A DNA stretch of 64,000 bases, from contig JBBRLQ010000015.1 in assembly GCA_038231275.1 (NCBI GenBank), positions 32,001-96,000 on the forward strand, given 5' to 3'. This DNA is from Polyangiales bacterium (lineage in GTDB: Bacteria; Myxococcota_A; Polyangia; Polyangiales; Polyangiaceae). The notes below the pieces were generated by a model. It saw nothing but the letters and a program-made list of their open reading frames with translations, had not been told where the DNA came from and did no database searches. Positions 6,106-64,000 of this stretch are shown piece after piece. The position numbers and the translations under genes were made by a program. Position 1 is the stretch's first letter, and each line of letters starts with the position of its first letter.

Positions 6106-9100
6106 TTACGGCGGCTTCCACGCGACCGCGGCGTCGCGCTCGGCGCTCATCCACGCGCCCGCTGCGGTGAACTCCTCGGCAGCCTTCTTCGCCGCCGCGA
6201 GCGACGCCTCGCGGTCCTTCTTCACCTTGGCGAGCGCCTTCGCGAGCGCGAAGTGGAGCTCGCCGCGCAGCTCGAACGGGAGCCGTTTGGTGGCGGCGAT
6301 CTCCTCCGCATGTTCGAGAAGCGGAAGCGCGACGGCGTGCTGGCCCAGCGCGACGTTGGCGCGCGCGAGGCCGATGATGTCGCCGGCCATCTCGGCGGTC
6401 GCCTTCCCAGAGCGCTCCTCGTCGATCGCGCGCGCGTGCTCGTACGCAGCGAGCGCCTCGGCGTTCTTGCCGGCGCGGAGGAGGACGTGCCCGATATTTC
6501 GCTCCGCGCGCGCGACCTCGGCGTGGGATGGGCCGAGCGCCTTGACGTAGATCGACCTCGCCTTCTCGTAGGTCGCGCGCGCGACGTCGAGCGCGCCGGT
6601 CTGCTCCTGCACGATCCCGAGATCGAGAATGGCGTCTCCGGTCTCCGCGTGCTCGAGGCCGAGCGCCTTCTCGTCGATCCCGATGGCGCGCTCGAGCAGC
6701 GCGGTGGCGCGCGTCGTCTCACCGCGCTTTCGAACCGACAGCGCGACGTTGATGAGCGCGGCGGCGACGGCCGGGTGGTCAGGCCCCAAGACCTTCTCGT
6801 CGATGGAGAGCGCGCGCTCGTAGCTGACGAGCGCGTCGTCGATGCGCCCCGCGTAAGCCTGCGCGACGCCGAGGCTGTTGATGACCTCGGCGACGTCGGG
6901 GTGCTCGGGGCCGAAGATCTTCTCGGTGACGGCGGCGGCCTCTTTGAGCGTGGCGATGGCGTCATCCACGCGGCGTTGATCGCGGAGCGCGCGGCCGAGG
7001 CGCATGAGCGACTTGGCGACGCGCGGGTGATCGGGGCCGAAGAGCGAACGCGCGAGCGCGAGGGCCTCGCGGTGCTTGGCCTCGGCCTCGACGTATTTGT
7101 GCTGGCCGCCGAACATCTGCCCGAGGCCGTCCAAGAGGAGCAGCTCGGCGAGGCCGCCGCCGCCCGCACGCTCGAGGGCAGCGCGCGCGCGTTGCTCGTT
7201 GCGCTGCGCGTCGGCCGCGTCGACGAGCATGCCGCCGCTCAGGCCGACCAGCGTGGCCCAGAGCTCGGCGGCGAGCTCGTCGGAGCGACCGGCCTCGGCC
7301 GCCGCGACGGCCAGGAGGAGCGTGTCGCGCGATCCTTTCACCTCGCCGATCGCAAACTCGAGGCCCCCGCGTAGCGCGAGCGCCTCCGCCTCGAGGGGAC
7401 GGTAGCGCAGGCGCGTGGCGCGATCGACGAGCGGCTTGACGGACGCGAGCGCCTCCTTCGCCTTGCCGGAGTCGCCGAGCGCCTGCGCGCGCGCCAACTC
7501 GACGCGGAGCGCGTTCACCTCCTGGAGCGTCGCGGGATCGTTCGGCGGCGGGACGCGCGCCGTGAGCGCCGTGGTATCGCTGCACGCCTTTATGGGCGGC
7601 AGCTCCGTGACGGCCCGCGCCGCGTTCTCGGTGGCGCCGCGATCGGCGTGCGCGAGGACGTCGGAGAGCGCGCGCAGGTGCTCGAGCCGGTCGTCGAGGC
7701 AGCGCGTCCGCAGCGTGAAGACCTGATCGGATTGATCGCCGCGCACGCGCGTCGCCACGCACGCGTCGGTGCGCGCCGCCGTCCACTCCGCCGCGTACGC
7801 GTCGAGCGCGCGACGTACGGCACGCGCGGCGTCGTCGGCGAACGGCGCGCCGGTCGAATGCAGCGCCGCGTCGACTTCCGCCTTGCGCGCGTCGTCCCAC
7901 GACCCCACCAGCGCCGCCTCGGCCCCCTGGCACATGCGCCCCTTCTGCTGCCCGCGCGCGCCCGCCGCGACGAGCGCGACGAACCCGATCACGAGCGCCG
8001 CCCCCACCACCATCCTCCGCCTCCGCGCCGCAGGATCGCGGGCGAGCGCCTCCAGGAGATCCTCCATCGTCGCGAACCGCGCGTCGGGCTTCGCCGACAG
8101 GCCACGAAGAAGCGCCTCGCGCAGGAACGGCGGCACGCGCGACGTCTTCGGCGCCTTTCGCACGGTCCCGCCGACCACCGAGGCCGCCAGCCCGCGCGGC
8201 GTCTCGCCATCGAACGGACGCTCGCCGTAGAGCGCCTCGTAGAGCGCGACGCAGAAGCTGAACTGATCGGTGCGCGCGTCGGTCGCCCGTCCGGTGTACT
8301 GCTCGGGCGCCATGTACTCCGGCGTTCCGACGACGAAGCCGGGGCGCGTGACGGCGTCGAGCGTCGCCGGCGTGTGCGGACCGCTCGCGGTTCGTGGCGT
8401 CCGTGGCGACTTGGAGAGCGGCGCGTCTCCTGGCGTGCGCACGACAGGCGGTGACGTATCGGCAACGGTGTGCGCGGGCGCGGTCTTCGCGCGGGCGAAG
8501 CTGTCGGGGTCGACCGCCGCGCCGTCCCCTTCTGCGGGCGCCCGCGCGAGGCCAAAATCGGTGACCCGAACGCGCCCGTCGTCGCCGACGAGCACGTTGT
8601 CGGGCTTGAAATCACGGTGAACGAGCCCCGCGTCGTGCGCGGCGGCGAGCCCGCGTCCGGCCTGCGCGAACACCTTCAGGACCTCCGCCTGCGATCGCTC
8701 TTCGCGAAGCCAATGCGCGAGCGTCGGACCCGCGACGAACTCCATCGCGATGAAGACGCGCTCGCCGAACGTGCCGACGTCGTGCACCGCGATGACGTTG
8801 GGATGCGCGAGACGCGCCATGGCCCGCGCCTCGCGAATCAGGCGCCGTTGCCGTGCCGCCGGCTCTTCTTGTCCTCCAGGATCCTCGAGGAGGAGCTTCA
8901 GTGCGACGCGCCGGTCCAGCTCCGGATCGAACGCCGCGTAGACGGCCCCCATCCCTCCTACGCCGACGCGGTCGAGGACGAGGTAGCGGCCGAGCGCCTC
9001 TCCGCGCGCGAGCGGGGCCGAGTCGTGCCTCCGCGGCGCCGCCTCACCGCCCGAGGGATGCGACTCGCCGGTGTACGCCCGCGCCGCGTGCGTCTCCGCC

Positions 9101-9147
9101 GCGCTCCGAGGGGCCTCGCCGTCGTCGTCGTCCTTGGGGGAGCTCAA
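6106..9147 (-). CDS. Membrane Ser/Thr protein kinase with TPR repeats
   Basis: GVGGMGAV, VALK, HRDFKPDN, DFG, GTPEYMAPE motifs; TM helix; 'GPDHP' TPR repeats. Confidence 0.95.
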   Translation of the reverse strand: MSSPKDDDDGEAPRSAAETHAARAYTGESHPSGGEAAPRRHDSAPLARGEALGRYLVLDRVGVGGMGAVYAAFDPELDRRVALKLLLEDPGGQEEPAARQRRLIREARAMARLAHPNVIAVHDVGTFGERVFIAMEFVAGPTLAHWLREERSQAEVLKVFAQAGRGLAAAHDAGLVHRDFKPDNVLVGDDGRVRVTDFGLARAPAEGDGAAVDPDSFARAKTAPAHTVADTSPPVVRTPGDAPLSKSPRTPRTASGPHTPATLDAVTRPGFVVGTPEYMAPEQYTGRATDARTDQFSFCVALYEALYGERPFDGETPRGLAASVVGGTVRKAPKTSRVPPFLREALLRGLSAKPDARFATMEDLLEALARDPAARRRRMVVGAALVIGFVALVAAGARGQQKGRMCQGAEAALVGSWDDARKAEVDAALHSTGAPFADDAARAVRRALDAYAAEWTAARTDACVATRVRGDQSDQVFTLRTRCLDDRLEHLRALSDVLAHADRGATENAARAVTELPPIKACSDTTALTARVPPPNDPATLQEVNALRVELARAQALGDSGKAKEALASVKPLVDRATRLRYRPLEAEALALRGGLEFAIGEVKGSRDTLLLAVAAAEAGRSDELAAELWATLVGLSGGMLVDAADAQRNEQRARAALERAGGGGLAELLLLDGLGQMFGGQHKYVEAEAKHREALALARSLFGPDHPRVAKSLMRLGRALRDQRRVDDAIATLKEAAAVTEKIFGPEHPDVAEVINSLGVAQAYAGRIDDALVSYERALSIDEKVLGPDHPAVAAALINVALSVRKRGETTRATALLERAIGIDEKALGLEHAETGDAILDLGIVQEQTGALDVARATYEKARSIYVKALGPSHAEVARAERNIGHVLLRAGKNAEALAAYEHARAIDEERSGKATAEMAGDIIGLARANVALGQHAVALPLLEHAEEIAATKRLPFELRGELHFALAKALAKVKKDREASLAAAKKAAEEFTAAGAWMSAERDAAVAWKPP

Positions 9148-9222
9148 CGCATCGAGGATACCTCGACCGTCGCGCGCGCGCCCGGGCGCGCCGTGCGCGA
9201 CGGTCCGTCACGACGTACGGGC

Positions 9223-9285
9223 AAAAAAAACGTGCCCAGACGGCCCTGCGCTCAATGAGGGGGAGCGCAGAGCAGCCTGGGCACG
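9223..9285 (-). terminator. Rho-independent terminator (third hairpin of the sRNA)
   Basis: Long GC stem 9285-9231 followed by 8 U (A8 at 9223-9230 on +). Confidence 0.8.
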
Positions 9286-9393
9286 GGGCCACGCGGTTGG
9301 GGTGGGTGGGGTTTGGGCCGCGTGGCCTTCAACGCGTGACCCAGCGGCGTAGGAGGGGCGCCGCCCAGGTCACGTCTTCTATCTGGGGTCGGG
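9223..9393 (-). ncRNA. Putative sigma54-dependent small RNA with three C-rich-loop hairpins (Pxr-like architecture)
   Basis: Stems 9374-9335, 9327-9287 and 9285-9231 with loops CCCCUCCUA, CCCAAACCCCACCCACCCCAA and CCCCUCAUU; G-U pairs form only on the minus strand; U8 tail; sigma54 promoter immediately upstream. Confidence 0.75.
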
Positions 9394-9403
9394 CTTCACG
9401 ATG

Positions 9404-9420
9404 CGCAAGGTGGACGCCGT
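9404..9420 (-). promoter_or_regulatory. sigma54 promoter of the putative sRNA
   Basis: Minus strand ACGGCGTCCACCTTGCG: GG (9418-9417), 10 nt, GC (9406-9405) with TTGC; predicted +1 near 9393. Confidence 0.65.
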
Positions 9421-9546
9421 ACCTTTCCTTTCGCGAGGGGTCTCACCGTCGTCGCCTCGTTCGGGGATGCAACCGGCGTGGCCCGAAATCGATTCCCGTC
9501 CAGTGAGGGGTCTCATCGCGCAGCTGTGCGGACGCGTCGCGCGCGC

Positions 9547-10725
9547 TCAGATCATCTTGGAGGCCGCGGCCTCACGCGCCTCGAGCACGCACGCACGCTC
9601 GTGGTCGGACACGGGGCACGATGCGTCGACGATCCGCGCCGGCGCCTCGCCCGCGAGGATCATGGTCCGCACCGCCGCGCTGCCCGCGAGGAGATCGAGC
9701 GCCGGGATGTCGTCGACGAACTCGTAGCGCTCAGTCCGGAAGCGGAAGGCGTCGGGCGCCTGCCGATGCGCGAGCGCGAGGAGCGCGACGTACGTGGCGA
9801 CGGGGCGAAACGCGCGCGCGTCGGTGACGTGGAGCTGAACGCCTCCGCAGATCTGCCCCGCGTGCTTGTGGAACATGGGACGAAACGTCAACGGCCGCGC
9901 CACGACGCCCGGCACGTGCGACCGGAGCTCCGCGAGATCCCGCGCGAGGCGCACACCGTCGAGCCACGGCGCGCCGGTGATCTCGAAGGGCCGCGTGGTC
10001 CCTCGTCCGTCGGAGAGGTTCGTCCCTTCGAGGAGGCAGCCGCCGGGGTAGACGAGCGCGGTGTCGATCGTCGGCATGTTCGGCGACGGCATCACCATCG
10101 GGCGATCCCACGCGGTCGCCAGCGCACCTCTCTCGACGCCGCGCGCCGCGAGAACCTGCACGAGCGCGCCGTGCCCCTCGACCTCCGCGCGCCACGCCAC
10201 GATCTCGCCGAGCGTGAGCGCGTGACGAATCGGCACCGCCTCGAGCCCGACGAACGAGAGAAACCCCGGCTCCTGGACCCGCCCCTCGATCTCTTCCCCG
10301 CCGAGCGGGTTCGGCCGATCGAGGACGAGCACCTTCACGCCGAGCTTGGCGCACGCGCGCACCACGAGCACCGCGGTCCACACGAACGTGTAGTACCGAG
10401 CGCCGACGTCCTGAAGATCGATGACCAGGAGATCGATCCCGCGCAGATCGCCGTCCTTCGGGACGAGATCGTCGAAGTGTGCACCATACAAGCTTCGCAC
10501 CGGCGTGCCGCGCGCGTCTCTCGCGTCGTCCACGCCGATCATGTCCTGCGCCTCGCCGCCATAGCCGTGCTCGGGGCCGAAGATGATCACGGGGCGCGCG
10601 CCGAGACCTTCGAGCACGTCGCCGATGTGACGGAGGGAGCGATCGACGGAGGCTGGGTGCGCGAGGAGTGCGAGGCGCTTCCCGCGCACGTGGTCGGCGG
10701 TCAGCCGATCGATCCCGAGCTGCAT
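9547..10725 (-). CDS. namZ: DUF1343/NamZ-family exo-beta-N-acetylmuramidase
   Basis: FGPEHG, DLQDVGARYYTF, LDRPNP, PIRHALTLGE, PSPNMP, EGTNLSDGRGTTRPFE motifs. Confidence 0.88.
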   Translation of the reverse strand: MQLGIDRLTADHVRGKRLALLAHPASVDRSLRHIGDVLEGLGARPVIIFGPEHGYGGEAQDMIGVDDARDARGTPVRSLYGAHFDDLVPKDGDLRGIDLLVIDLQDVGARYYTFVWTAVLVVRACAKLGVKVLVLDRPNPLGGEEIEGRVQEPGFLSFVGLEAVPIRHALTLGEIVAWRAEVEGHGALVQVLAARGVERGALATAWDRPMVMPSPNMPTIDTALVYPGGCLLEGTNLSDGRGTTRPFEITGAPWLDGVRLARDLAELRSHVPGVVARPLTFRPMFHKHAGQICGGVQLHVTDARAFRPVATYVALLALAHRQAPDAFRFRTERYEFVDDIPALDLLAGSAAVRTMILAGEAPARIVDASCPVSDHERACVLEAREAAASKMI

Positions 10726-10791: not shown

Positions 10792-11617
10792 ATGCTCGAC
10801 GTGCTGGTCTTCGTGCTCGCCCATCACGATCCGGCGATCCCCGCGACGATCGTAGCGGGGGCGTGGCTCGCGCCCTGGGGTGGTGTGTGCGTGCTCGCTC
10901 TCGTAGCGCTCGCGACGTGGGCACTCCTCGAGCGGCGCGGGCGAGCGGCGTGGCGCACCGAGACGGCCCACGTGGTCATGGCGACGGACGGGCCCTACCG
11001 GGCGTCGGCGCTGAACCTCCCGCGGACGCGCGCGCCAATCGGCATCCGACTCGCGACGCTACTGGCGCTCCTCGGCGCCTCGGCGACTCTGCCGTGGGTC
11101 GGCGTCGGCCTCGCCGAGGCGGTGGGGGCGCGGAACCCGCTCGTGCTCGCGGTAGCGCTGCTGCTCGCGGGGACCGGCGCGTGGATGGTGCGCGCGAGCG
11201 GGGGGGCGCTTTCGCATCGGAGCACGCGCGGAGCGAGCTTCGCGTGGATCTCTTCGGCCGCGGTCATCGCCGTAGCGCTCGGGGTCTGGTTTGGAGTGCT
11301 CGACGCATGCCTCGTCGAAGTGCATGGGCTCAAGGGCCTCCGCGCCGTGCTTCCCCTGGGGGACGTGCTGAGAAACGGTGGTGTCTTCTCGAGCTTTCGG
11401 CGGCCACGTCGCGCCCGTGTGGCGCGTGCTCCTCGTCGCCGCCATCGCCAGCGGCGTCGCTGCGCAGCTCGCGGCAGGAGCCGTGTGGATCGCGACGCGG
11501 CGACGTCAGCGGATTCCGTCGGCCGCACCGGCGCTCCTTGTGCGGCAGCCTCGTCAGCGCGGTTTCTCCGCGCGCACACGCCGCCCTCCATCAGCACACA
11601 TCCCGCCACCCTTCTGA
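10792..11617 (+). pseudogene. Multi-pass membrane protein, probably frameshifted near 11372-11397
   Basis: GAGGAG SD + ATG at 10792; TM helices, then off-frame Arg-rich text after 11397, while the +1 frame continues with a TM helix (FGGHVAPVWRVLLVAAIASG...) to a stop at 11617. Confidence 0.5.
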
Positions 11618-11675
11618 GGGTGCGACGCGGTGCGGGCTTGTGTGGCGGCGGCCTCGCGCGGTACGCGCGTCGCTC

Positions 11676-12635
11676 ATGAAGGTCGCTCTTTCCGCTCTCG
11701 TCGTCGGGCTCTCGATCGCGTGTGCACCGGGCTGCAGCTCCGCGCCTGACGACAACGCCGACACGGCGGAGTCCGCGAGCACGACGGCCAAGATCAAGAC
11801 CGTCTTCGTCATCGTGATGGAGAACCACGATTGGGCCAGCATCAAGGGCAGCTCGTCGGCGCCGTACATCAACGGTCACCTCCTTCCGCAAGCCGCGTTC
11901 GCCCAGAACTACCAGGGCGCGCCGGGCATGCACCCGAGCCTGCCCAACTACGTCTGGCTCGAGGCCGGCGACAACCTCGGGATCACGGACGACAGCGATC
12001 CCAGCACCCACCACCAAGCCACGAAGGACCATCTGGTCTCGCAGATCGTTCGTTCCGGTCGCGACTGGCGCTCCTACCAAGAGTCGATCGACGGAACGGA
12101 ATGCCCGCTCACCGGCACTCCTTTCCTGAGCCGCTACGTTCCGCGCCACAACCCGGCGGTCTACTTCGACGACGTGACGGACGGAAACGATCCCAACTCC
12201 GCCAACTGCATCCGCCACGTGCGCCCCTTCGGCGAGCTCGCCAAGGATCTGCACGCCGGCAAGGTGGCCGCCTACAATTACATCACGCCGGACCTTTGCC
12301 ATGACATGCACGGGCAAGAGATCTCGTGCCTCTTCGGCGATCAGATCAAAGCGGGCGACACCTGGCTCTCCAAGACGATCCCGATGATCCAAGCCTCCGC
12401 GGCGTACCAAGCCGGCGGCGCGATTTTCATCACCTTCGACGAGAACGAAGGCGGGCAAAAGCCGATCGGAATGATCGTCGTGAGCCCGTTCGGCAAGGGC
12501 GGGGGCTACACCAACTCGATCGCGTACACGCACAGCTCGACGCTGCGAACGATCGAAGACATCTTCAAGCTGACTCCGTTGCGCGGCGCTGCCAGCTCCA
12601 ACAACCTGAAGGATCTCTTCCGCTCGTTCCCTTGA
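11676..12635 (+). CDS. Phosphoesterase-family (alkaline phosphatase superfamily) lipoprotein
   Basis: Lipobox; VFVIVMENH, HPSLPNY, RHNP, TPDLCHDMH, ITFDE, YTHSSTLRTIE motifs. Confidence 0.9.
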   Translation: MKVALSALVVGLSIACAPGCSSAPDDNADTAESASTTAKIKTVFVIVMENHDWASIKGSSSAPYINGHLLPQAAFAQNYQGAPGMHPSLPNYVWLEAGDNLGITDDSDPSTHHQATKDHLVSQIVRSGRDWRSYQESIDGTECPLTGTPFLSRYVPRHNPAVYFDDVTDGNDPNSANCIRHVRPFGELAKDLHAGKVAAYNYITPDLCHDMHGQEISCLFGDQIKAGDTWLSKTIPMIQASAAYQAGGAIFITFDENEGGQKPIGMIVVSPFGKGGGYTNSIAYTHSSTLRTIEDIFKLTPLRGAASSNNLKDLFRSFP

Positions 12636-12727
12636 TTTCGCCGGGCACCTTTTTTTCATCCGCGTGGGGGCCAAGCGCCGCAGGCCCTTTTTGTGCTGGG
12701 CGTCCAGGTATGCAATAGTTGCGGCCC

Positions 12728-14092
<1,365 letters not shown>

Positions 14093-14099
14093 CGCGGAA

Positions 14100-16385
14100 T
14101 CAGAACGCGCCCTCGAGGCCGATGCTCGGGACGATGACCGGAATGCTGCCCGCGGTATCGGGCTCACACCGGTCGTAGGCGAGGGCGGAGGTCGGGTTGG
14201 GCGAGCACGTCACGTTGAGCACTTCGTGGCTCCCGGTGACGTTGAGCCCCTCGGCGACGAACGCGACGTAGCCGCTCTTGGTGAGCCAGCGCTTCTCGAT
14301 GCGCGCGTCGACGCGGACGAACGCAGGCAAGCGCTCCGTGTTGTACGGCGGTACCGGAATGTCGCGGATGCGGTTCGAATAAGGGCGGCCGGTGTAGGTG
14401 ACGAAACGCCCGCCGACCCTCCAGTTCGCGCCGAGATCGTACGCGGCGACGACGTTCAGGACGTGCGTGCGATCGAACTCGCTGAGGACCGTCTGGAGCT
14501 GATCGGCCGAGCCGAGGGGGTGCGCTTCGCGCGTCGAGCGCGACAACGTGTACGCGAACCAGCCGGTGAGTCGCTTGGTGAGCGGGCGGCGGAGGAGTAG
14601 CTCGAGCCCGAACGTTCGGCCGCGGACGCGCTGATCGAGGCACTCGTTCGCGTTGTCGATGTGGTCGATGCCGCACGTCGCCGTCGCATCGGTCAGATTC
14701 AAATAGTCGTGGAGGAAGAGCGTCGGCGTGAACGTCAACTCGAGCGGCAGCGCGATCTCGGCGCCCTGACTCAGCTGCAGCGCGGTCTGCGTGCCCTTGT
14801 CGAGGCGCCCGAGCTGCAGACCCGGCACCGGAACGATGAACGCCGGCGGCTGATGGGTGACGCCGAACGCCGAGAGCCACGTGACGCGCGGCGCCACTTT
14901 GACCCTTGTCGCGAGGCGTGGATCGAACGTCGGCACGGCGGCCGACGTCCCCGCCAGCTCGGACTTCGAGCCGAAATAGTCGACGCGCGCGCCGGGGACG
15001 ATCTCGACGGACGGCGACGCCTTCAGGACGAAGTCGCCGCGGATGCCCATCGCGAGATCCTTGCGTCCTGGATAGTTCACCACCTCACCGCCGTTCGAGA
15101 TGAGCGTGAAGCTGTCCAAGAGGACGTCCGCCCCGGCGCGGAGTCGCACGTGCTCTGCGAGGCGAACGTCGATCTCGTTGCGCACGCCCGTCAGGTAGTC
15201 GCGCACGGCGAAGTCTTTTCCGTTGCTCGTCTGATCGAAGCCCACGGTGACCGCCGTGCGAATGTGCCCGCTCGTTCCTAGCGCGTGATCCCACCGCACA
15301 TCGACGCGATGAAATTGAGTGGACGTGACGTCCTTGAGGCTGCCGTCCGCGGCGCGGGAACCCGCGGCGTCGAAGCTGCCGAACGTGAAGAGGCCGAGCG
15401 TGTCTTTGTCGTTCAGCTGCCACGACGCGCGCGCCTGGTAGTCGCCGTACTGGAGGAACACTCTCGGCGCGAGGAGCGTGAGGAGGAGGCCCGGATAGCC
15501 ATAGCGGCCCGCGACGGCGGCGTGCCCTCTGCCGCCGCCGAAGGGTGCTTCGACGAGCGCGCCGGCGTGGATGAGACTCGCGTCCCATTCGCCGTGGAAG
15601 GTGTCGGCGGGCGGCTTGGTGTGCCCGTCGATGATGCCGCCGGCGAAGCGGCCGTACCTCGCAGGGAACGCGCCCGGATAGAAGTCGACGTGATCGATGA
15701 GCCCCGGGTGGACCACCGAGCGGAGCACGCCGAAGTGGAACAGGAGCGGCACGCGAATGCCGTCGATCATGTAGCCCGTGTTGCCGGGCGGCGCGCCGCG
15801 GATGAAGTAGTAGGGGAGGCCGCTCACGATGGGCGTCACGCCGGGGAGCGCGTCGATCGCGCGGAAGGCGTCGCCGAACGCGCCGGGCATCTGACGGACC
15901 TCCGCGCTCCCGAGCTGCGTGCCGCCGACGTCCGGCCGCTGGCCCGCGACGCGAACCTCTTCGACCGCGTCCGCGGCGGCCGGCTTCGCGGTCGTCGTCG
16001 GCGCGGGCGGACTCGTCTCCGGCGCGGGCGTCCGTGGCGGCTCGTGAAACTCGACGAGCATGCGAATGCGCGCCTGCACGGCGATGTCGCCGCGACGCGC
16101 GGGCTCGAATCGAAACGAGGGCGCGCGCGCGAGGACGCTCGACGCGAACGGCTCGCGACCCTCGACGATGACAGCCCGCGCGACGTGCCCGTCCTTGTCG
16201 ACGAGCAACTCGACGACGACGCTCGCGTCACCGGCGGCGCCTTCCGGGTACGGCACGCGCCCCGTGTCGATCGCCACCGGAGGCACGAGCGCGGGAGGCG
16301 GCGAAGGGCTCGGCTCCGCGGCCGACGCGGGCACGGCAGCCAAGACACACGCTGCGAGAACGGCAGCCCATCTCGCGCGCGGCAT
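14100..16385 (-). CDS. TonB-dependent receptor with N-terminal TonB-C-like domain
   Basis: Signal peptide, 'YPEGA..VVVELLVDKDG..FRFEPA' domain, plug (RGAPPGNTGYMIDG, FYPGAFPARYGR), C-terminal Phe. Confidence 0.88.
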   Translation of the reverse strand: MPRARWAAVLAACVLAAVPASAAEPSPSPPPALVPPVAIDTGRVPYPEGAAGDASVVVELLVDKDGHVARAVIVEGREPFASSVLARAPSFRFEPARRGDIAVQARIRMLVEFHEPPRTPAPETSPPAPTTTAKPAAADAVEEVRVAGQRPDVGGTQLGSAEVRQMPGAFGDAFRAIDALPGVTPIVSGLPYYFIRGAPPGNTGYMIDGIRVPLLFHFGVLRSVVHPGLIDHVDFYPGAFPARYGRFAGGIIDGHTKPPADTFHGEWDASLIHAGALVEAPFGGGRGHAAVAGRYGYPGLLLTLLAPRVFLQYGDYQARASWQLNDKDTLGLFTFGSFDAAGSRAADGSLKDVTSTQFHRVDVRWDHALGTSGHIRTAVTVGFDQTSNGKDFAVRDYLTGVRNEIDVRLAEHVRLRAGADVLLDSFTLISNGGEVVNYPGRKDLAMGIRGDFVLKASPSVEIVPGARVDYFGSKSELAGTSAAVPTFDPRLATRVKVAPRVTWLSAFGVTHQPPAFIVPVPGLQLGRLDKGTQTALQLSQGAEIALPLELTFTPTLFLHDYLNLTDATATCGIDHIDNANECLDQRVRGRTFGLELLLRRPLTKRLTGWFAYTLSRSTREAHPLGSADQLQTVLSEFDRTHVLNVVAAYDLGANWRVGGRFVTYTGRPYSNRIRDIPVPPYNTERLPAFVRVDARIEKRWLTKSGYVAFVAEGLNVTGSHEVLNVTCSPNPTSALAYDRCEPDTAGSIPVIVPSIGLEGAF

Positions 16386-19015: not shown

Positions 19016-19243
19016 ATGATCAAGAACCTCACGCGCACGGGAAACAGCGTCGCGCTGGTGCTCGACAAGCAACTCCTCGAAGCGGCGCACCTCGATCCCG
19101 ACGAAGAGGTCGAGGTGTCCACGAACGGACGCGTCATCGTGATCTCGCCGGTTCGAAGCAAGCGCGAGACGGACAAATTCAGGCAAGGCGAGGAACGCAT
19201 GCACGCCAAGTTCGCTGGCGCCTTCGGCCGCCTGGCGAAGTGA
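19016..19243 (+). CDS. AbrB/MazE-family antitoxin
   Basis: LTRTGNSVALVLDK motif; 75 aa; GTGA overlap with the toxin. Confidence 0.9.
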   Translation: MIKNLTRTGNSVALVLDKQLLEAAHLDPDEEVEVSTNGRVIVISPVRSKRETDKFRQGEERMHAKFAGAFGRLAK

Positions 19244-38091: not shown

Positions 38092-39960
38092 ATGCTCGAC
38101 GATCTCTACCACCTGCGGGAGCGCGCGCGCGTGGCGCTCGGCAAGGGCGACCTCGACGAGGCGGCGAATCTCCTCGTCAGCGCCGCCGCGCAGACGCACG
38201 TCGCCGAGCACGACTACGTGTCGGTGCTGAAGCCGCTTGTCGAGGTGCTCCTGAAGCGTGGCGACGTGCGGAGCGCGCTGTCGGTCCAGTGGTACCTCGC
38301 GTTCGGCGAATCCGACGGATGGAAGACGGCGCTCACGTTGATGCCTCACGCGCTGCCCGTCGATCGCGCGCGCACGTTGGCGGCGGCCGCGGCGGCGACG
38401 GCCGACAAGAAGGCCGAGGCCGAGTACATGGCCAACGCCGCGCGCGAAATGGAGAACGCGGGCCTCGTCGCCGCCGCTGCCATTTACCGCGAGAAGTCGC
38501 AGGATTTCCGAGGCGCGCGCGCTCTATGGTCGCGGTTGTCGCAAGTGACCGGCACCGGCGCCGACGCGTACAACGCCGCGCTCGTCCAGTTCAACCTCGC
38601 CCGCTGCGCCAAGGCGTGCGGCGATCCGCGCCAGGCGCGCGAGGCCATCGTCGCGAGCGTGCGCTTGCTGGAGGAGGCGGCCGATCACTTCGAGAGCGTC
38701 GGGCAGCGCGAGCGCGCGTTCGACTGCTTCCAAGTGCTGGTTCAGATCGGTCGCGAGGCGAAGATGTTCGAGGACGTCCTCGAGGGCTTCGTGAATTGCA
38801 TTCGGATCCTGCGCGAAGATCACCTGAAGTATTTCGCGCTCCAATATTTCGAAGACGCGCTGTCGGCGGCGAAGGACAATAAGGAGTTCTCGGCGGCGGC
38901 GACGCTCGCGCGCGAGGCCAGCGAGTATTCGCGCGCGTTGGCGATGCCGTCGGCGAGCGCGCACTACACCCTCGTGCAGGCGTCGCTCTGGCAAGACGTC
39001 GCGCGCCACCAGCTCGAACGCGGCGCGCCGCCGGAGATCGCCGAGAACGCGCTCCTCGCCGCGGTGTTGGCGTACGGCGAGGTCGGCCAGTTCGCGAAGG
39101 TCGGACAGCTCTACGGAGAGCTCTCTGCGATGGATCTCGAGCCGTCGCGCAAAGACCACTACGCGCGCGCGTCGAAGCGCTACGCCGGGGTGAAGGACGA
39201 GCCGATCGATGCGACGCCGCTGCCGTCGCACCTCCGCCAAGACAACCATTTCCCAGACGTTTGGCACGTCGACTTGCTCGAGTGGGAGCAACAAGGAAGC
39301 GCCGCCGAGGCGTGCGCCGACGTGCTGCTCGACAAGAGGTGGCCCGATCTCATTCGCCGGAAGGCGCTCCTCGCGCGCCTCACGGCGTTCGCGGTGGAAG
39401 GGAAACCGGAAGAGGCGCAGGCGGGGGCGCTTCTCGTGGGCGCGCGCGTCCGCCTCGCCGAGCAGCTCGCGCAGCTCCAGCTCTACGTGGTCCTCTCTCC
39501 GCTGGAGAAGCTCTTCGAGCGACCCGAGCGCCAAGTGAAGGCGGCGGTTTTGTCGTCGATGCAGACGCTCTTCTTCAAGCGAAGCTTCATCACCGTCCGC
39601 GCGGGGCTCCGCGACGCCGACCCCGCGATCGTCGAGCACGCCGCGCGCGCGGTGGAGGCGCTCTATTTCCAGCACGCGTTCGATCCGCTCTCGCGCATCG
39701 TGCGCGAGGCGCCGCAGCCGACGGTGCGAGCAGCGGCGCTCCGTGCCCTCGCGCGGGTCGACACGCTGGAGGCGGCGGAGTTCTTGCTGGGTGTCCTCGA
39801 GCACGGCGCGCCCGTCGATCGCACAGCCGCGCTCGAAGGCTTGAAGCGTTCGCGCGGCGCCCGGTTCGTGGAGCTCGCAAAACAATCCTTCCGCGCCTCC
39901 GGCCCCGAGGTGCAGAGCGCGATTCGGGAAGTATTCCGCGCGCGTGGCATCGCGGCCTGA
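38092..39960 (+). CDS. All-helical TPR/HEAT-repeat protein
   Basis: Ala/Leu/Glu-rich helical repeats; C-terminal HEAT-like 'VRAAALRALA'. Confidence 0.8.
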   Translation: MLDDLYHLRERARVALGKGDLDEAANLLVSAAAQTHVAEHDYVSVLKPLVEVLLKRGDVRSALSVQWYLAFGESDGWKTALTLMPHALPVDRARTLAAAAAATADKKAEAEYMANAAREMENAGLVAAAAIYREKSQDFRGARALWSRLSQVTGTGADAYNAALVQFNLARCAKACGDPRQAREAIVASVRLLEEAADHFESVGQRERAFDCFQVLVQIGREAKMFEDVLEGFVNCIRILREDHLKYFALQYFEDALSAAKDNKEFSAAATLAREASEYSRALAMPSASAHYTLVQASLWQDVARHQLERGAPPEIAENALLAAVLAYGEVGQFAKVGQLYGELSAMDLEPSRKDHYARASKRYAGVKDEPIDATPLPSHLRQDNHFPDVWHVDLLEWEQQGSAAEACADVLLDKRWPDLIRRKALLARLTAFAVEGKPEEAQAGALLVGARVRLAEQLAQLQLYVVLSPLEKLFERPERQVKAAVLSSMQTLFFKRSFITVRAGLRDADPAIVEHAARAVEALYFQHAFDPLSRIVREAPQPTVRAAALRALARVDTLEAAEFLLGVLEHGAPVDRTAALEGLKRSRGARFVELAKQSFRASGPEVQSAIREVFRARGIAA

Positions 39961-39976
39961 CGTGTGCGACGATTCC

Positions 39977-41176
39977 ATGATGGCGCTCAAGTGGACGGCC
40001 CTCGCGGCGGCGTTCGTGCTCGTGGGTTGCTCCGACGACGGTTCGGGTGGTGCGACCGGGAGCAGCGGCTCTAGCGGGACCAGCGGGACGAGTGGCAGCA
40101 GTGGGACCAGCGGCACCAGCGGAACGAGCGGCAGCAGCGGAACCAGTGGATCGAGTGGCTCCAGCGGCACCAGCGGAACCAGCGGATCGAGTGGCTCCAG
40201 CGGTACCAGCGGCACCGACGGAGGCAACCCCAACGGCACCGGGCTCTTCCCCAGCTCGTCGATCTTCTACCAGGACATCTCCGCGGCGCCGGTCGACGCC
40301 GCATGGACCACGATCCGTCCCGCCGTCGACGCGCTCGGCGGCTTCGGCACCGGCGCCATCCAGATGAATTTCGAGATCCACGTCCTCCACGCCGACGCGG
40401 CGGTCGTGCCGCGCCCGTTCACGCAAGACGCAAACAACTTCTTCGTCGGCGAGTGCGACACCGCGCCAATCCCGGTCCCGCCCGGCGGCGCGATGGAAGC
40501 CGTGAACAACTACACGTGCGACATCGCGAACAACGACTGCCACCTCGTCGTCGTCCAAGGCAACCGCTTGTACGAGGGCTGGCGCGCGACGATCGGCGGC
40601 GGAACGGCGACCGGCAACCCTTTCATCAGCGGCTGCGTCGCGATCTGGGATCTCACCAAGGACTACTGGCAACCGGTGTCGGCCGGCGCCGTCTACAGCC
40701 GCGGAGATCACTGCGGCAGCGCCGACGCCGGGGGCTTCCCGATCGCCGCGATGCTCTTCAACGCCGACGAGGTCTCGGCCGGCGAGGTCAAGCACGCGAT
40801 CCGCTTCATCATGCCGAACGATCGGATCCGCTCCGACGTCTATGTGCACCCCGCCATCCACGCCGCCGGCAGCGGCGCGCAGGACGTCCTGCCGTACGGT
40901 GCGCGCCTGCGCCTCAAGGCAGGGACGGATCTCACGAAGCTCAAGCCGTGGGCCAAGGTCGTCGCGAAGGCGATGCAGAAGTACGGCATGTTCCTGTCCG
41001 ACGGCGGAAATCAGGCGCTCACGGCGCAGTCCGACAAATTCACGACCGCCAAGTGGGGGACCAACCTCACGCAGAACGATCTGGGCGCCTTGACGTTCGA
41101 CGACTTCGAGATGGTCGCCGGCGGCACGCGCATCCCGAAGAGCGGCAACTGCCCGCACGTCGTCCTCACGAAGTAG
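39977..41176 (+). CDS. Lipoprotein with Gly/Ser/Thr repeat linker
   Basis: LVGC lipobox; (GSS/GTS)n; folded domain with GARLRLK and KYGMFLSDGG. Confidence 0.85.
   Translation: MMALKWTALAAAFVLVGCSDDGSGGATGSSGSSGTSGTSGSSGTSGTSGTSGSSGTSGSSGSSGTSGTSGSSGSSGTSGTDGGNPNGTGLFPSSSIFYQDISAAPVDAAWTTIRPAVDALGGFGTGAIQMNFEIHVLHADAAVVPRPFTQDANNFFVGECDTAPIPVPPGGAMEAVNNYTCDIANNDCHLVVVQGNRLYEGWRATIGGGTATGNPFISGCVAIWDLTKDYWQPVSAGAVYSRGDHCGSADAGGFPIAAMLFNADEVSAGEVKHAIRFIMPNDRIRSDVYVHPAIHAAGSGAQDVLPYGARLRLKAGTDLTKLKPWAKVVAKAMQKYGMFLSDGGNQALTAQSDKFTTAKWGTNLTQNDLGALTFDDFEMVAGGTRIPKSGNCPHVVLTK
40058..40216 (+). repeat. 9-nt coding tandem repeat (GSS/GTS) with a 36-nt higher-order duplication
   Basis: AGCGGAACCAGYGGATCGAGTGGCTCCAGCGGYACC occurs twice in tandem. 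Confidence 0.85.
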
Positions 41177-63104: not shown

Positions 63105-63617
63105 TCAGCGATTGCCCATCGCCATCTGCGGCTCGCCGGCGCGACGAGCGTTCGCGCGCGTCGTCGTCTGCGCGGGCGGCTCCGACGCGAGCCAGGTCGA
63201 GAGCGGCTCGCAGGCGGAGAGGTGGGTGCTGTCCAAGAGGACCTGCGCGCCCATGCGGGTCTCGGAGTCGACGATGATCGGCGCGACGAGGTTGACCGTC
63301 GGGGGAACGTCGGTGCCGGGAGCGGCGAAGACGAGCATGATCGACCACGTGCTCGGATCGTTCCCGATGCCCGCCGCGATCGCCGCGTTCATCATGGCCT
63401 CCTCGCCGTACTGGACCGCGAGCGCCTCGAGCGAGATGACCGGAAACGCGAGTGCCGGGTTCGTCGCCGAGTGCAGCCACGCGATGGGCGAGCCCTCACG
63501 CTGGCGGATGAGGAGGAACTTCGTCTCGTTGGCGAAGCCGATCATGCCGGCCGGAAAATCGATGAGATCCTTCTCGTCGATGGTGATGGTTCCGAAATTC
63601 GTGGTCTTGAAATTCAT
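63105..63617 (-). CDS. fliW: Flagellar assembly factor FliW
   Basis: TTNFG...FPAGMIGF...WLHS...LAFPVI...TVNLVAPIIV...GAQV. Confidence 0.88.
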   Translation of the reverse strand: MNFKTTNFGTITIDEKDLIDFPAGMIGFANETKFLLIRQREGSPIAWLHSATNPALAFPVISLEALAVQYGEEAMMNAAIAAGIGNDPSTWSIMLVFAAPGTDVPPTVNLVAPIIVDSETRMGAQVLLDSTHLSACEPLSTWLASEPPAQTTTRANARRAGEPQMAMGNR

Positions 63618-63667
63618 GTCGATGCTCCCTGGCTTTTGTTTTGTCGTGACGAGTCGCAAATGTTCGG

Positions 63668-64000
63668 TCAGGCGTTCGCCATCAGCGCCATGGCGGCGCG
63701 GCGGTCGGCGTCCTTGAAGGCTTCGATCACGCTCTGGCAGGCCTCGAAGCCTCGCGTCGCTCCGATGAGCTCGACCATCCCCTTCACGGCGGACACGTTC
63801 GACCCTTCGATGGACTTGGGCTCGAGCACCGCCGGGATCACCTTCGGCGCGCCGGCGCCCGGCGTCGCCTGGAAGAGAGCGGGCTCCGCCTTGCGCAGCT
63901 CGCCGGGCTTCGCGAAGCTTACGATTTGCAGCGTTCCGACCACCGATCCGCCTGCGCGGACAGTGCCATCGGGCGAGATCGAGGCGTCTATCGACGCCGG
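63668..64000 (-). CDS. flgF: Flagellar basal-body rod protein C-terminus (FlgF/FlgG family), truncated by the window edge
   Basis: ISPDGTV...VGTLQIV, IEGSNVSAVKGMVELIGATRGFEA rod C-terminal motif. Confidence 0.8.
   Translation of the reverse strand, partial: PASIDASISPDGTVRAGGSVVGTLQIVSFAKPGELRKAEPALFQATPGAGAPKVIPAVLEPKSIEGSNVSAVKGMVELIGATRGFEACQSVIEAFKDADRRAAMALMANA

Follow-up and report, generated by a model that had tools for sequence, protein, structure and literature searches.

What is encoded in the gap between namZ and a Ser/Thr kinase gene of this Polyangiales bacterium? The question arises from a stretch of 64,000 nucleotides (nt) of contig JBBRLQ010000015.1, referred to here as the window. 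An earlier note had proposed for this gap a sigma-54-driven, Pxr-like small RNA (sRNA) on the minus strand, with three C-rich loops directed against Shine-Dalgarno (SD) sequences. We consider it probable, with considerable room for doubt, that the gap carries a stand-alone sRNA gene of a new Polyangiales family, the C-rich loops of which would pair with SD regions. The RNA belongs to a known kind, the C-rich-loop anti-SD-type sRNAs, but founds an uncatalogued family. Such a gene would also explain why the intergenic block is unusually conserved (~88% identity with the closest relative, locus L001).

A covarying RNA family beside namZ

All three hairpins, their C-rich loops and the closing run of eight U lay where the earlier note had placed them (Table 1), and RNAfold returned the same structure. 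On the minus strand, the minimum free energy (MFE) and centroid folds both consisted of exactly hairpins 1 to 3 (−91.8 kcal/mol; z = −6.12) and none of 200 shuffles folded equally well. The plus strand reached z = −2.86 and was equalled by two of 200 shuffles. This difference indicates that the G-U pairs favour the minus strand, in agreement with the earlier note, and the three-hairpin structure exceeds chance. The 21-nt loop of hairpin 2 contains C and A only, and the loop of hairpin 1, CCCCUCCUA, is the complement of the SD sequence UAGGAGGGG, as had been recognized before. When terminators were scanned for, sites equivalent to the U-tract were flagged in loci L044 and L027; the RNA's own terminator site in the window was not, probably because its loop has 9 nt and the scan accepts at most 8.

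Relatives were sought by searching genome contigs with the NamZ protein, which yielded 80 loci from Polyangiaceae, Labilithrix and Myxococcales metagenome-assembled genomes (MAGs) and isolates. The DNA searched comprised ±10 kb around namZ. By BLASTN, the intergenic region matched a single locus among the 80, L001 (82% identity over 284 nt), and beyond L001 the family was invisible to this method; it was revealed by a covariance model. The first model (R1), describing the three hairpins and built from the window and L001, gave full-length matches in 31 further loci, one in each (E 3e-11 to 1.4e-3). To avoid circularity we rebuilt the model without the window: R2 was made from 30 of these 31 matches, the truncated L014 being excluded along with the window and L001. 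It recognized the window in full length at 9221-9378 of the minus strand (77.6 bits, E 1.5e-17) and L001 with 70.5 bits. Over 1.38 Mb, R2 found a single match of at least 47.8 bits in each of 33 of the 80 loci; the remaining matches scored at most 24.2 bits and were mostly terminators on the reverse strand. The family has 34 members, one of which (L018, 15769-15897) lies in the cultured, fully sequenced Labilithrix luteola DSM 27648, where its computed position is ~5,370,954-5,371,082 of NZ_CP012333.1, plus strand.

No model of Rfam 15 reached its gathering score anywhere in the window or in eight member loci, and at E ≤ 10 the interval 9000-9700 gave only a chance match to a long non-coding RNA. 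In the full texts that could be searched, on sRNAs of Polyangiales myxobacteria (reviews only), on a C-rich small RNA of Sorangium and on the loop motif (10 of 31 matches), we found no description of the RNA. By these comparisons it is assigned to a predicted, uncatalogued sRNA family of Polyangiales-type myxobacteria, without a match in Rfam 15.

The window and L001 alone covary weakly, with one pair changed on both sides, five broken cells and 229 of 500 shuffles scoring as high. In the alignment of 30 sequences fitted to the model, which leans towards that model, 95.8% of the cells were paired and 30 of 38 pairs had changed on both sides; none of 500 shuffles scored as high, and slid controls were 27-48% paired. 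An independent alignment of 33 sequences by MAFFT and RNAalifold, from which the truncated L014 was left out, found the same two helices as the model (96.7% paired; both sides changed in 15 of 22 pairs). Again no shuffle of 500 scored as high, and the slid controls were 27-51% paired. Helix 1, which is hairpin 2 and forms the core module, has nine pairs, five of them changed on both sides, and is 98% paired; helix 2, the terminator (hairpin 3), has 13 pairs, of which ten changed on both sides. Conservation and covariation in relatives, which the earlier note had named as a test, were thus borne out by the covariance model and both alignments.

In the family core, a linker (C)CUUGA is followed by a stem (for example GGGCUUGCGCG/CGCGCAAGCCC), the loop (A)GCCCCUCCCCC(AC), a short terminator hairpin and the U-tract, which is conserved in the family alignment. 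The core loop of the CCCCUCCCC type stays nearly constant on variable stems, with CCCCTCCCC in 29 of the 34 members and CCTCC in 33. Hairpin 1 is variable. At the equivalent place, 12 of the 34 members have a CC[CU]UCCU[AG] loop, and some groups of members have a hairpin that is not C-rich, or none. An extended terminator stem with a third C-rich loop occurs in the window and L001 only, the terminator loops of the other members being short, GNRA-like or CAG. The core loop of these two (hairpin 2) is a C-rich variant without U. The window and L001 are a derived form, with a core loop that has lost its U and a lengthened terminator hairpin that bears a third C-rich loop. Folded singly, 30 of the 34 members show one to three C-rich apical loops. 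Taken together, the alignments show a constant part, namely a stable covarying stem predicted to keep the CCCCUCCCC-type loop single-stranded, with a putative intrinsic terminator directly after it. Lineages supplement this part with none to two more hairpins that carry C-rich loops; in the window, the C-rich loops number three.

Promoter-like motifs upstream of the RNA

Two bipartite motifs precede the RNA (Table 1). The proximal one, in the form TTGnnn-N16-18-[CT]Annnn, was found at the equivalent place in 29 of the 32 members with enough upstream sequence, compared with 20% of random 210-nt windows. In L001 it reads TTGCGC-N17-CAAATA. An A-rich tract (GAAAGGAAAGG, 9432-9422) precedes it in the window, and in the members it usually stands behind an A- or T-rich tract, as judged by eye. 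A start point directed by this motif would lie at the base of hairpin 1 (~9374) and give a short form of ~150 nt.

Two small open reading frames (ORFs) overlap this region. A mini-ORF of nine codons (TTG 9408 to TAG 9379), conserved in L001, was considered as a leader peptide and dropped because the same bases form the −35, spacer and −10 of the motif kept in 29 of 32 members. An ORF of 14 codons through hairpin 1 was rejected: given the variability of that hairpin, the ORF is not conserved across the family.

In the L. luteola locus (L018, ~15560-15700, plus strand), the proximal motif stands ~212 nt ahead of the core loop. The RNA gained in this way would hold a further hairpin, the loop of which, as judged by eye, is GCCUCCCCG; this is another sign of modular loop number.

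The distal motif resembles promoters of extracytoplasmic-function (ECF) sigma factors. GGGAAT-N18-GTTG has one match in the window, compared with 0.02 expected, and in L001 both boxes and the 18-nt spacing are retained despite five changes within the spacer. Among the 34 members, 16 have GGAAT-N18-GT[CT], the spacer being N18 in every case; the background frequency is 0.034 per kb per strand. The motif of the window matches the SigH/SigR-type ECF consensus GGAAT-N18-19-GTT as quoted in an excerpt of PMC10012870. A start near 9464 may represent a second, stress-responsive promoter and yield a form of ~240 nt. The RNA gene may accordingly comprise 9374-9223 of the minus strand in its short form and begin at ~9464 in its longer one.

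A direct repeat, TGAGACCCCTC, brackets the ECF-type motif (9514-9503 and 9446-9435, minus strand) and is not conserved in L001. In one family clade (L044, L032, L052 and L041), a related sequence, GACCCCTC, directly adjoins the proximal −35.

Table 1. Coordinates of the predicted RNA, its upstream motifs and the flanking genes in the window
Feature	Position	Strand	Description
Distal ECF-sigma-type promoter-like motif	9497-9470	minus	GGGAAT (9497-9492)-N18-GTTG (9473-9470)
Proximal promoter-like motif	9408-9380	minus	TTGCGC (9408-9403), N17, CAGATA (9385-9380)
Hairpin 1	9374-9335	minus	7 + 7 bp; loop CCCCUCCUA at 9358-9350
Hairpin 2	9327-9287	minus	Perfect 10-bp stem GGCCACGCGG/CCGCGUGGCC; 21-nt loop CCCAAACCCCACCCACCCCAA at 9317-9297
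Hairpin 3, long terminator hairpin	9285-9231	minus	11 + 11 bp; loop CCCCUCAUU at 9262-9254
U8 tract (T8 in DNA), putative intrinsic terminator	9230-9223	minus	U-tract conserved in family alignment
namZ (exo-beta-N-acetylmuramidase family), upstream	9547-10725	minus	Pfam NamZ_N (1.3e-55), NamZ_C (1.1e-43)
Ser/Thr kinase gene with TPR repeats, downstream	6106-9147	minus	Pfam Pkinase + TPR_12

Mechanism, known systems and rival explanations

We propose that transcription would start from the proximal TTGnnn-N17-CAnnnn promoter and, in the clade of the window, also from the distal GGAAT-N18-GTY promoter of the ECF-sigma type, which would tie the RNA to a stress response. The exposed CCUCC or C-rich loops would then pair in trans with GGAGG-type SD regions of target mRNAs and block the initiation of translation. 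The loops complement strong SD sequences, CCCCUCCUA pairing with UAGGAGGGG and CCCCUCCCC with GGGGAGGGG. Pairing in trans is inferred by analogy with the 6C sRNA and the cuckoo RNAs, and repression through pairing with ribosome-binding sites is plausible on the same grounds.

The cuckoo RNAs of Alphaproteobacteria (ar14, RSs0680/CcsR and NfeR1) carry the anti-SD sequence CCUCCUCCC in every hairpin loop, and some of them are induced by stress from alternative-sigma promoters, according to excerpts of PMC4615179. As described there, they resemble the new family in their adjacent modular hairpins (two to four, compared with one to three C-rich ones here), in conserved anti-SD-like C/U loops on variable stems, in the terminator at the end and in a preserved genomic context. 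They differ in their loops, which in the new family are CCCCUCCCC or CCCUCCUA and not CCUCCUCCC; none of the three loops of the window (CCCCUCCUA, CCCAAACCCCACCCACCCCAA and CCCCUCAUU) equals the cuckoo sequence. The phylum is also another one (Myxococcota), and the constant module, unlike that of cuckoo RNAs, is a single loop fused to the terminator. The Rfam model ar14 (RF02344) scored 11.3 bits on L044, where its gathering score is 58.8, and had no match on the window. There is no homology to cuckoo/ar14.

The best mechanistic analogue is the 6C sRNA of Actinobacteria, C-rich loops of which pair with G-rich ribosome-binding sites without Hfq or ProQ, as stated in an excerpt of PMC6486639. 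On that description, it shares with the new RNA a short length, a high-G+C organism and runs of C in hairpin loops. The two differ in phylum, synteny and promoter motifs, and Rfam, which presumably holds a 6C model, gave no 6C match for the window or the eight member loci. A further likeness was seen on L044 to Rhizobiales-2 (RF01723), which also has the order hairpin, C-rich-loop hairpin and terminator hairpin. It scored 23.3 bits against a gathering score of 40 (E 0.47-1.3), had no match on the window and was the best Rfam family on a member after P6 (25.8 bits, a terminator on the reverse strand). This is a sub-threshold resemblance, not membership.

Several observations weigh against an anti-SD sRNA transcribed from its own promoters. 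On the side of the loops, the hairpin-2 loop of the window has no CCUCC core, and single-sequence MFE folds hide the C-rich loop in four of the 34 members. When the three loops of the window (the slice for loop 1 being displaced by a few bases) were scanned for duplexes with 43 translation-initiation regions, there was no enrichment: the means were −13.0 kcal/mol for start regions and −12.7 kcal/mol for random segments. Likewise, the exact loop complement occurred at 14 sites in 1.39 Mb of neighbourhoods, none of them at a shared gene. On the side of transcription, the proximal motif fails a scan for the Escherichia coli-type sigma-70 consensus in the window, L044 and L027, and has an atypical −10. 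Of the 34 members, 18 lack the ECF-type motif, and no ECF sigma gene was present among the 44 ORFs of the window scanned against Pfam. No terminator was found between namZ and the RNA in the window, and read-through from namZ is possible. The transcript and both its ends are predicted from the DNA, and copies were counted per locus (±10 kb around namZ).

A more specific form of the proposal is possible, and we offer it tentatively. It describes an anti-SD sRNA independent of cuckoo and 6C, with two promoters including an ECF stress promoter, which would act as a chaperone-free, broad brake on translation initiation in a setting of envelope or redox stress. One to three CCUCC loops would exert the effect, the dose being tuned by gain and loss of loops, and in the lineage of the window, two new loops would have taken over the motif of the core loop. 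The RNA would then be the first order-wide riboregulator family recognized in Polyangiales (Sorangiineae-type myxobacteria).

The main rival to pairing with mRNAs is a sponge. In this case the RNA would be real and conserved but serve to titrate a protein, its C-rich loops being decoys for an RNA-binding protein (of the poly(C)/KH type or another), for the ribosome or for the SD. A near-invariant loop on covarying stems would suit recognition by a protein as much as seed pairing, C-rich loops come in modular numbers (one to three) as they do in sponge RNAs, and the lack of target enrichment in the scans of the window and the neighbourhoods agrees with it. We nevertheless regard a sponge as unlikely, for the loop and a strong SD are exact complements, base-pairing is the mode of action of 6C, the analogue studied by experiment, and no candidate gene for a binding protein is linked to the RNA, the neighbours being namZ, the kinase gene, an ORF of unknown function and purL.

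Could the element act in cis only, as a structured 3′ untranslated region (UTR) or terminator of namZ or as an attenuating 5′ leader of the kinase gene, with no function in trans? In the window and L001, the RNA lies on the same strand as both genes and between them, in gaps of 400 and 311 nt, respectively. The missing terminator after namZ points in the same direction, as does the U-tract of L001, which ends just ~22 nt before the kinase start. In 26 of the 80 loci, moreover, a kinase gene follows namZ at a distance of at most ~135 nt, in an operon-like arrangement. Against a cis element stands the placement of the RNA in the family, where it lies elsewhere just after namZ, after the kinase gene on the same strand, or convergent with that gene. 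Its strand is that of namZ in 22 of the 34 members and the opposite one in 12. Downstream of the RNA, the closest ORF is convergent and at most 100 nt away in 16 members and co-directional in three; in the others, crude gene calls based on G+C at third codon positions placed none near by. The 12 members on the opposite strand and the 16 with a convergent ORF exclude a leader or a namZ 3′ UTR as the function of the family. In addition, conserved promoter-like motifs stand immediately upstream of the RNA and the kinase gene retains a TATCCT of its own, 7 nt before its TTG. A fixed location combined with free orientation is the pattern of an independent sRNA gene. We therefore judge an element acting in cis only to be quite unlikely. 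The comparative evidence supports a putative stand-alone gene, as the earlier note had argued from the window, and neither a leader nor a 3′ UTR.

The promoter and the kinship in that note fared differently. The note read the RNA as a sigma-54-dependent, Pxr-like developmental sRNA starting at ~9393. Its promoter, ACGGCGTCCACCTTGCG at 9420-9404, is present with the GG-N10-GC spacing, the RNA does have three stem-loops, and a gene for an NtrC-type enhancer-binding protein is located 3.3 kb away and syntenic in 60 of the 80 loci. The promoter is not conserved, however, and occurs at the frequency of chance. The core GGC-N7-TTGC was counted 13 times in the window, with 11.1 expected, and 38 of 100 shuffles had at least 13. 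In L001 the site has become GG-N12-GC and the −24 GG is lost; GG-N8-TTGC is found at that place in two of the 34 members and TGGC-N7-TTGC in none. By alignment, the TTGC that had been taken for the −12 element is the −35-like TTG of the putative family-wide proximal motif, which overlaps the sigma-54 site.

Nor did the kinship with Pxr hold. In Rfam 15, which we take to include a Pxr model, the covariance scan of 9000-9700 gave nothing relevant at E ≤ 10. Pxr has a predicted sigma-54 promoter and an enhancer-binding region and lies beside pxrR, none of which is found at the window RNA, whose neighbour is namZ and not an enhancer-binding-protein gene. The excerpts of PMC5684412 and PMC11928866 report pxr as confined to the suborder Cystobacterineae; the relatives of the window RNA are all from Polyangiaceae, Labilithrix or Myxococcales MAGs and isolates. 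In the Pxr paper searched, the term 'C-rich' has no occurrence, whereas C-rich loops mark the window RNA. Pxr was set apart by the Rfam scan, promoter, neighbours and published range. Taken together, these findings make a sigma-54-dependent relative of Pxr very unlikely, and that reading is largely refuted already.

A dispersed palindromic repeat of the repetitive extragenic palindrome (REP) or miniature inverted-repeat transposable element (MITE) type, or a chance array of GC-rich hairpins, is hardly credible at all: hairpins are frequent in a genome of 69% G+C and the covariance model has weak partial matches to other hairpins, but no second copy was found in the 64-kb window, each of the 33 loci over 1.38 Mb has one strong copy, and the match is strand-specific, syntenic and covarying.

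If the RNA is an anti-SD sRNA as we propose, it adds a third, independent lineage to a pattern of high-G+C bacteria, in which C-rich loops are set against G-rich ribosome-binding sites. In the excerpts cited above, Pxr, the myxobacterial sRNA that has been studied, occurs only in another suborder. From the analysis come 34 members and a covariance model, together with a loop whose conserved sequence is defined and a pair of candidate promoters, and the member in the cultured, sequenced L. luteola DSM 27648 makes the prediction directly testable.

Genomic neighbourhood and other features of the window

The flanking genes were as the earlier note had described them, including the TATCCT (9160-9155) 7 nt ahead of the kinase start TTG 9147. 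L001 keeps GAGGTATCCT (2703-2722 in L001; 9145-9170, minus strand, in the window) and an identical 7-nt spacing from TATCCT to TTG AGC. This conservation suggests that the kinase mRNA may be leaderless or have a very short leader. The kinases of the two loci share 77% identity from residue 3 onward and the NamZ proteins 80%. Between the genes, the block conserved with L001 (~9497-9222; the ~88% refers to a trimmed alignment) begins ~100 nt upstream of the transcript assumed in the earlier note. Outside it, the flanks, including the 3′ end of namZ, barely align. Hairpin 1 of L001 has an identical loop, and its two stem changes are G-U and U-G, which pair on the minus strand only.

The shared neighbourhood consists of namZ, the Ser/Thr kinase gene, orf374 and purL, and many loci have homologues of the last two at the sides of the RNA. 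Among 25 neighbours of members, Pfam recognized kinases, a single M50/PDZ protease and a single beta-helix protein; the others were without a match, and no functional link emerged from these 25 neighbours. The protease is an RseP-like site-2 protease (Peptidase_M50 + PDZ; L022, 14381-16045, plus strand), encoded on the strand opposite to the RNA and ~1.2 kb upstream of it, and was near the RNA in this one locus only among those scanned. RseP-like proteases activate ECF sigma factors in other bacteria.

The NtrC-type response regulator gene (12719-14092, plus strand; Response_reg + Sigma54_activat + HTH_8) is ~87% identical and divergent from namZ in the 60 loci in which it is syntenic. This conservation is unusually strong for a myxobacterial enhancer-binding protein. 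No link between this gene and the RNA was found, the family having no sigma-54 motif. Between it and namZ lies an ORF of 559 amino acids (aa) without a Pfam match (10995-12674, minus strand). As tblastn (E ≤ 1e-20) gave no match in the 80 related loci, the ORF seems to have been inserted into the conserved neighbourhood in this lineage specifically.

Three further observations were made elsewhere in the window. A FliW-family protein is encoded at 63105-63659 (minus strand), beside an ORF (63668-63943, minus strand) with a C-terminal domain of flagellar rod and hook proteins (Flg_bbr_C). Such flagellar-type genes are unexpected in a Polyangiales-like genome; to our knowledge, classical myxobacteria have no flagella. 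A 75-aa ORF at 19016-19243 (plus strand) has a weak match of the MazE-antitoxin type (24.0 bits, cut-off 24.7). Finally, ~15 tandem GGN-rich units of 9 nt at 40038-40240 (plus strand) lie within ORF 39944-41176, which has a weak Pfam match to the Collagen triple helix and encodes a repeat protein of the Gly-X-Y type.

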